Below, one piece after another: positions 41,607-42,292 of a stretch of 64,000 bases of DNA. The first letter of the stretch is position 1; each line of letters begins with the position of its first letter. Under the pieces are notes generated by a model, which saw only the letters and a program-made list of their open reading frames with translations, was not told the DNA's origin and searched no databases. The position numbers and the translations under genes are program-made. The DNA is from Escherichia phage p000v. The DNA lies in the sequence record NC_055781.1; one strand, written 5' to 3'.

Positions 41607-41837
41607 ATGTCTACTGAAACTATCGAAAAACTGCAGTCTGAAATCGTTACTCTGAAATCTCGCATTCTTGATACTCAAGACCAAGCAGCTGCTATCCAGC
41701 AAGAATCTCAGCAACTTGGTAGTGCTCTTGCTAAAATCGCTAATCTGGTTGGTATCACTGGTGAATCAGTTAAGATTGATGACCTGGTAGAAGCAGTACG
41801 TGAACTTGTTAAAGCTGAAACCACAGAAGAAGAATAA
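41607..41837 (+). CDS. 57A: Tail fiber assembly chaperone gp57A
   Basis: 76 aa coiled-coil protein [22 protein letters not shown]...; position after gene 1. Confidence 0.85.
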
Positions 41838-42292
41838 TGAAATTTGAGGACTTTTCACAAGGCCTCTACGTCGCAGCTAAATTTTCGGAATTAACACTTG
41901 ATGCGCTGGAAGACCTCCAGCGCAAATTAAGAATTCCTAATCCAGTACCACGTGAAAAGCTTCATTCAACAATTTGTTATTCACGTGTAAACATACCATA
42001 TACTACATCTAGTGGTAGTTATTCTGTTGCCGAATCAGGACACTTTGAGGTATGGAAAACTGACGACGGCGCTGTACTGGTTTTAGTTCTTGATTCCGAA
42101 TATCTTAGATGTCGTCATCAGTATGCACGAGCTTTAGGTGCTACTCATGATTTCGACGACTACACTCCACATATAACGTTATCATATAACGTTGGCCAAC
42201 TATCATTCAGTGGTGATGTAGCTATTCCGGTTATTCTCGACCGTGAATACAAAGAACCCTTAAAACTAGATTGGGCCGAAGATCTAAAATAA
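41837..42292 (+). CDS. 57B: gp57B-like protein with two H-x-T/S motifs (2H phosphoesterase-like)
   Basis: 151 aa (T4 57B 152 aa); contains HSTI and HITL, the tandem HxT/S signature of 2H phosphoesterases. Confidence 0.7.

Follow-up and report, generated by a model that had tools for sequence, protein, structure and literature searches.

Genomic setting of gene 57B

The DNA analyzed here, a stretch of 64,000 nucleotides from Escherichia phage p000v (NC_055781.1; referred to below as the window), contains gene 57B as an open reading frame that lies directly behind the tail-fibre chaperone gene 57A. The initial annotation had placed this frame at 41837..42292 with HSTI near residue 43 and HITL near residue 112 of a 151-aa product, and all of these elements are present exactly as described. 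The features on which our analysis draws are as follows.

40868..41602: gene 1, dNMP kinase (Pfam DNMK, 323 bits)
41607..41837, + strand: 57A, tail-fibre chaperone (Pfam GP57, 80.9 bits), directly upstream of acb1
41837..42292 including the stop codon, + strand: acb1 (gene 57B), ATG to TAA, 151 aa, almost certainly an anti-CBASS 2H phosphodiesterase
41963..41971, + strand: first catalytic HxT, H43-S44-T45 (H44/T46 in T4), assigned from sequence and conservation
42170..42178, + strand: second catalytic HxT, H112-I113-T114 (H113/T115 in T4), assigned from sequence and conservation
42254..42289, + strand: C-terminal segment with E140 (adenine N6 contact) and W146 (base-stacking lid), mapped to T4 E141/W147
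6833..7840: RNA ligase 2 (Rnl2), 335 aa (Pfam RNA_ligase and T4_Rnl2_C)

The TAA of 57A and the ATG of acb1 share one base in the sequence TAATG (41835..41839), and a consensus terminator scan around the gene found no terminator-like site between 57A and 57B. Because of this overlap and the lack of an intervening terminator, it is likely that the two genes are co-transcribed and translationally coupled. A consensus promoter scan around acb1 returned 18 promoter-like sites against an expectation of 12.7±4.0, which is background, and we claim no dedicated promoter for the gene. In T4, expression of 57B and vs.4 is predominantly middle/late.

The order gene 1, 57A, 57B, followed by small frames that have no Pfam match, is the order annotated in RB69, and the 2.4 kb surrounding acb1 are 94.6-97% identical at the DNA level to RB69 and to Mosigvirus phages of E. 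coli that resemble it. Adjacency of 57A and 57B is annotated in RB69, Erwinia phage IT22, Acinetobacter phage Bhz15, RB49, Aeromonas phage 44RR2.8t and Vibrio phage D481. In the T4 record that we examined, the 57A slot is unannotated and the 57B homologue is found after gene 1, in the same place. The name 57B, given to the gene in the initial annotation, is thus borne out by its position after gene 1 and 57A, as in RB69 and T4, and by the 85.4% identity of its product to T4 gp57B over the full length. The placement of an anti-defence gene directly behind a tail-fibre chaperone gene is an arrangement kept across several Straboviridae genera.

Downstream of acb1, five small frames follow one another on the + strand (42369..44102), encoding products of 103, 68, 120, 96 and 171 aa; a Pfam scan of these five gave no hits, and they provide no functional context. 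The matching stretch of RB69 is annotated with ORF156c, ipI, tRNA.4, tRNA.3, tRNA.2 and ORF151c. The first of the five, the 103-aa frame (42369..42680), occupies a variable slot in which the RB69 record has ORF156c and then ipI.

The 57B product is a member of the Acb1 family

In the initial annotation 57B was regarded as a gene with no well-defined role, a view that is out of date: since 2022, T4 57B has been known as Acb1 (anti-CBASS protein 1), a metal-independent 2H phosphodiesterase (Hobbs et al. 2022, PMC9117128). The window protein matches Pfam PF23474, 'Anti-CBASS protein Acb1', with E=1.3e-58 and 197.3 bits (cut-off, 27 bits), residues 8-149 being aligned to positions 1-144 of the 144-position profile. 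Among proteins of the PDB, the best sequence match is Acb1 of Erwinia phage FBB1 (7T26/7T27; E=1.1e-58, residues 9-148), and a distant second is the 'Anti-CBASS protein Acb1' of Burkholderia phage BCSR5 (9Q2G/9Q2Y). A tblastn search with the acb1 product found it in 1,488 of 50,697 phage records, at 99-100% identity in RB69-like phages, with 85.4% for T4 and phages close to it and a low of about 29% in phages of Vibrio.

Comparison with the characterized members places the window protein close to T4 Acb1 (gp57B, NP_049750.1), with which it shares the genomic position after gene 1 and 57A and nearly the same length (151 versus 152 aa); it differs by 22 substitutions and by an N-terminus one residue shorter. 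FBB1 Acb1 is about 61-63% identical. BCSR5 Acb1 has the 2H fold with a lid, as the window protein is predicted to have, but it is longer (165 aa), only 16-18% identical and detected by sequence at an E-value of 0.007, and it represents a remote branch within the family. Homologues of a different length are encoded by Cronobacter phage GAP161 (L008:259-882) and Klebsiella phage Miro (L009:259-882), Pseudotevenvirus and Slopekvirus phages. At 207 aa, these proteins are extended at the C-terminus by ~55 residues (…HIEHRGDKWVVLNHDRTKELGEYDSKEAAEKRLRQIEYFK…) that Acb1 of T4, RB69 and FBB1 lacks.

Taken with the residue conservation and predicted fold described below, these matches leave us in very little doubt that the gene is a functional acb1, the RB69/Mosigvirus orthologue of T4 gene 57B, whose product would linearize A-containing cyclic di- and trinucleotide signals by means of its HxT/HxT tetrad. 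The acb1 of the window is therefore an already known gene and adds no new biology.

Catalytic and ligand-contact residues are conserved

The 151-aa protein contains only two H-x-[ST] motifs, H-S-T-I from residue 43 and H-I-T-L from residue 112. We assessed how often such a pair arises by chance with 100,000 composition-preserving shuffles of the window protein: 14% of the shuffled sequences had two or more H-x-[ST] motifs, and 5% had a pair 50-90 residues apart. Since two or more motifs occur at this frequency, the motif pair is by itself statistically weak and proves nothing, and the identification was therefore rested on homology and conservation.

Conservation of the four residues is complete. 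H43, T45, H112 and T114 show no variation among 11 homologues from phages of different genera or among all 57 database homologues, which extend down to ~30% identity; conservation of both histidines among 57B homologues had been proposed as a check on the 2H assignment, and it holds in 57/57. Furthermore, nine residues of T4 Acb1 have been named as functional, with Y12, W74, F107 and W147 stacking on bases, E141 contacting the adenine N6 and H44, T46, H113 and T115 acting in catalysis (Hobbs et al. 2022, PMC9117128). All nine are identical in the window protein with an offset of -1, Y12 corresponding to Y11, W74 to W73, F107 to F106, W147 to W146, E141 to E140, and H44/T46/H113/T115 to H43/T45/H112/T114. 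The HxT/HxT tetrad and the ligand-contact residues are the same as those of T4 and FBB1 Acb1. In the 57 homologues the stacking positions remain aromatic (W/F in 56/57 at one and F/Y in 56/57 at another, with W146 retained in 53/57), and E140 is retained in 55/57. The segment 42254..42289, which encodes E140 and W146, is the counterpart of the lid seen to close over bound ligand in FBB1 Acb1 (PMC9117128).

The named functional residues are untouched by the 22 substitutions that separate the window protein from T4 Acb1. On sequence alone these substitutions may nevertheless allow a shifted substrate preference, and one could imagine an RB69-type allele that spares the decoy nucleotides of Panoptes yet cleaves CBASS signals, or one that also acts, as a side activity, as a 2',3'-cyclic phosphodiesterase on the ends of RNA. 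We regard such a specialization as quite unlikely: all known functional residues are unchanged and nothing in the sequence points to it. When the literature was searched for Acb1 and RB69 in combination, no functional work on the RB69-type allele turned up; by analogy with the T4 protein, it would have the same substrate range.

The predicted fold is that of Acb1

A structural model of the window protein was produced with AlphaFold (AF2) from an alignment of 57 homologues, drawn from a search of 5.8 billion proteins. The model has a pLDDT of 89.9 and a pTM of 0.83, and only residues 1-5 and 148-151 are of low confidence, which at the C-terminal end is consistent with a flexible tail; a single-sequence AlphaFold model (pLDDT 40.2) was discarded. 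When the model was compared with the PDB using Foldseek, the top match was 7T26, apo Acb1 (E=3e-19, TM 0.85/0.93, rmsd 1.0 Å over 133 columns, 63% identity), and the top hits also included 7T27, Acb1 with cleaved 3'3'-cGAMP. The predicted fold is thus the same as that of FBB1 Acb1. The BCSR5 phosphodiesterase came next (E=2e-8, TM about 0.68). Among predicted viral structures, the top named hits were again 'Anti-CBASS protein Acb1'.

More distant matches were found to members of the 2H phosphoesterase superfamily, namely LigT, TT0787, the Deinococcus and Arabidopsis cyclic phosphodiesterases (CPDases), Usb1, AKAP18 and the 2',5'-phosphodiesterase domain of rotavirus VP3, at TM values of about 0.45-0.6 and 8-18% identity, with LigT, TT0787, CPDase, Usb1, AKAP18 and VP3 recovered at probability >=0.97. 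With its two H-x-T/S motifs on a predicted pseudo-symmetric, two-lobed fold that has LigT and these other enzymes as structural neighbours, the window protein belongs, as modelled, to this superfamily. The 2H phosphoesterase call of the initial annotation therefore stands, and it can be made more specific in that the protein is a member of the Acb1 family whose model superposes on 7T26 at 1.0 Å. Structure prediction, which had been suggested as a check for a 2H fold, recovered that fold with LigT, CPDase and the viral 2',5'-phosphodiesterases as distant neighbours. The crystal structure of Acb1 itself is a 2H phosphoesterase fold in which a lid over the ligand has been described (PMC9117128).

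The cellular enzymes E. coli LigT (5LDI), T. thermophilus TT0787 (1IUH), Deinococcus CPDase (5H7E) and Arabidopsis CPDase (1FSI/1JH6) resemble Acb1 in their two-lobed 2H fold with tandem HxT/S motifs, in metal-independent acid-base chemistry and in the involvement of 2',3'-cyclic phosphate species. They differ in being larger (about 170-185 aa), in having only 13-18% identity and an rmsd of 5-9 Å to the window protein, in lacking the aromatic cage and C-terminal lid of Acb1, and in their substrates, which are RNA ends or ADP-ribose 1'',2''-cyclic phosphate. The 2H phosphodiesterases of eukaryotic viruses are weak structural matches to the window protein and have no significant sequence similarity to it. 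Like Acb1, the C-terminal domain of rotavirus VP3 (5AF2/4YE2) and the coronavirus enzymes of the ns2/ORF4b type are viral 2H enzymes that destroy a host nucleotide second messenger, 2'-5' oligoadenylate, and thereby silence innate immunity; unlike Acb1, they act on this linear 2'-5' oligoadenylate and not on 3'-5' cyclic oligonucleotides.

A role in RNA repair is not favoured

The initial annotation had suggested that a 2H enzyme encoded beside RNA-repair genes might serve in RNA end healing. In such a role the protein would act as a 2',3'-cyclic phosphodiesterase or a 2'-5' ligase on broken RNA, for example tRNA cleaved by anticodon nucleases of the host, with RNA ligase 2 as its partner. The fold is indeed common to LigT, CPDase and Usb1 (Foldseek probability 1.0, TM about 0.45-0.6), and the protein weakly matches Pfam 2_5_RNA_ligase2 (E=0.013). 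That match (PF13563) scores 15.9 bits, below the cut-off of 27, and covers only residues 70-131; similarly, the LigT matches lie at 13-18% identity and an rmsd of 7-9 Å, compared with 63% and 1.0 Å for Acb1. Hydrolysis of a 2',3'-cyclic phosphate is the second step of the Acb1 reaction (PMC9117128), which makes activity on RNA>p ends chemically conceivable, but the residues conserved in the window protein are those of a pocket that would fit a closed di- or trinucleotide ring, together with the lid tryptophan.

The genomic argument for this role also fails, because RNA ligase 2 is located 34 kb from acb1 (6833..7840), on the far side of a block of structural genes on the opposite strand. No association of acb1 with RNA-repair genes was found; its immediate neighbours are those for the dNMP kinase and the 57A chaperone and small frames of no assigned family. 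In tRNA repair by T4, the ends are healed by the polynucleotide kinase-phosphatase (PseT) together with Rnl1, and this pathway is not known to require a 2H enzyme. Finally, the phenotype of T4 Δacb1 is specific to CBASS (PMC9117128; bioRxiv 10.1101/2025.11.20.689424). With the context argument gone, PF13563 below its cut-off and the residues of the cyclic-nucleotide pocket retained, an end-healing function is unsupported, and we consider it highly improbable.

PHROG 755 and many RefSeq and GenBank records of 57B homologues carry the family label 'RNA ligase', and a few read 'cyclic phosphodiesterase' or 'RNA ligase/cyclic nucleotide phosphodiesterase'. This legacy label could be read in favour of a role in RNA repair, but it is an older, inherited, homology-derived name and not an experimental one, and it misleads about a family for which an anti-CBASS nuclease role has been demonstrated.

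Proposed action of the window Acb1

Family membership, fold and the conservation of every catalytic and ligand-contact residue were established for the window protein directly; its substrates, chemistry and anti-CBASS role in vivo are carried over from T4 Acb1, which is 85% identical, and from the structure of FBB1 Acb1, and the following model is to be read in that light. A CBASS host that senses infection would produce cyclic di- or trinucleotides (3'3'-cGAMP, cUA, cAAA/cA3 and others) by means of a CD-NTase, and these would switch on a cell-killing effector. We propose that the ring is held in a U-shaped pocket of Acb1, with Y11, W73, F106 and W146 as its aromatic lining, where E140 would read one adenine and the ligand would be strained. 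The adenosine 2'-OH would then attack the 3'-5' phosphodiester over the H43/T45/H112/T114 tetrad to give a 2',3'-cyclic phosphate intermediate, and its hydrolysis would yield a linear 3'-phosphate product that is unable to activate effectors. With the effectors inactive, abortive infection would be prevented and the phage would replicate.

Published work on T4 agrees with this outline. A cyclic-phosphodiesterase assay and mutation of the two histidines, the experiments suggested in the initial annotation, essentially match what has been reported, in that T4 Acb1 H44A is inactive and H44A/H113A is catalytically dead (PMC9117128). Acb1 blocks the effectors Cap5, Cap4 and CapV, and T4 Δacb1 is restricted by CBASS operons (PMC9117128). 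Likewise, 57B/acb1 is dispensable on K-12 and conditionally essential on a CBASS host, where it is depleted in a transposon library (HIDEN-SEQ, bioRxiv 10.1101/2025.11.20.689424).

An alternative reading places the main targets of the enzyme in natural hosts outside CBASS. Recognition by Acb1 is largely independent of base identity, and cA3 is degraded in vitro (PMC9117128), so that the enzyme might act chiefly on signals from outside CBASS, such as cA3 made by the Cas10 of type III CRISPR or by mCpol guard systems, with anti-CBASS activity as one facet. In keeping with this, Panoptes guard systems, which monitor cyclic nucleotides, sense Tevenvirinae phages that encode Acb1: the type II system, whose monitored signal is cA3, responds to Bas35-37, and phages that escape it have mutations in acb1 (PMC13577387). 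On the other hand, Acb1 does not cleave cA4, which is a common signal in type III CRISPR (PMC9117128). Moreover, such a role would involve the same enzyme and the same chemistry and would extend the explanation by Acb1, not replace it; as a replacement, we give it hardly any credence. The anti-CBASS reading of the window gene is accordingly the one that we retain.

A second anti-CBASS gene in the window

A homologue of acb2 (vs.4) is located at about 57653..57916 on the + strand, just upstream of regB (58193..58651). By tblastn its product shares 65.5% identity with T4 Vs.4, and in the PDB it matches entry 7UQ2, 'Vs.4', with E=1.2e-30. The list of open reading frames holds only a longer, TTG-started frame for this region (57482..57916), and the real start of acb2 is probably the ATG near 57653. 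As judged from these matches, the window carries both anti-CBASS genes, the acb1 nuclease and the acb2 sponge, about 15 kb apart. Acb2 (T4 Vs.4), like Acb1, neutralizes CBASS signals; unlike Acb1, it has an unrelated fold and acts by sequestration, leaving the signals uncleaved. Shortly upstream of the acb2 homologue, a 120-aa frame on the + strand (57074..57436) has a Pfam glycine-radical domain (67 bits), and its predicted product is similar to YfiD/GrcA-type proteins, which are stand-alone 'spare part' glycyl-radical proteins.

Recognition of the 57B product as Acb1 corrects two entries at once, the description of 57B as a gene of no known function and the widespread 'RNA ligase' label of the databases. 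Among the phage enzymes that erase second-messenger signals of bacterial immunity, Acb1 is one of the founding examples, and a parallel exists in the viral 2H phosphodiesterases that block the OAS-RNase L pathway in animals. For the prediction of host range, phages with both Acb1 and Acb2 should resist many CBASS systems, yet they should also become visible to guard systems of the Panoptes type.
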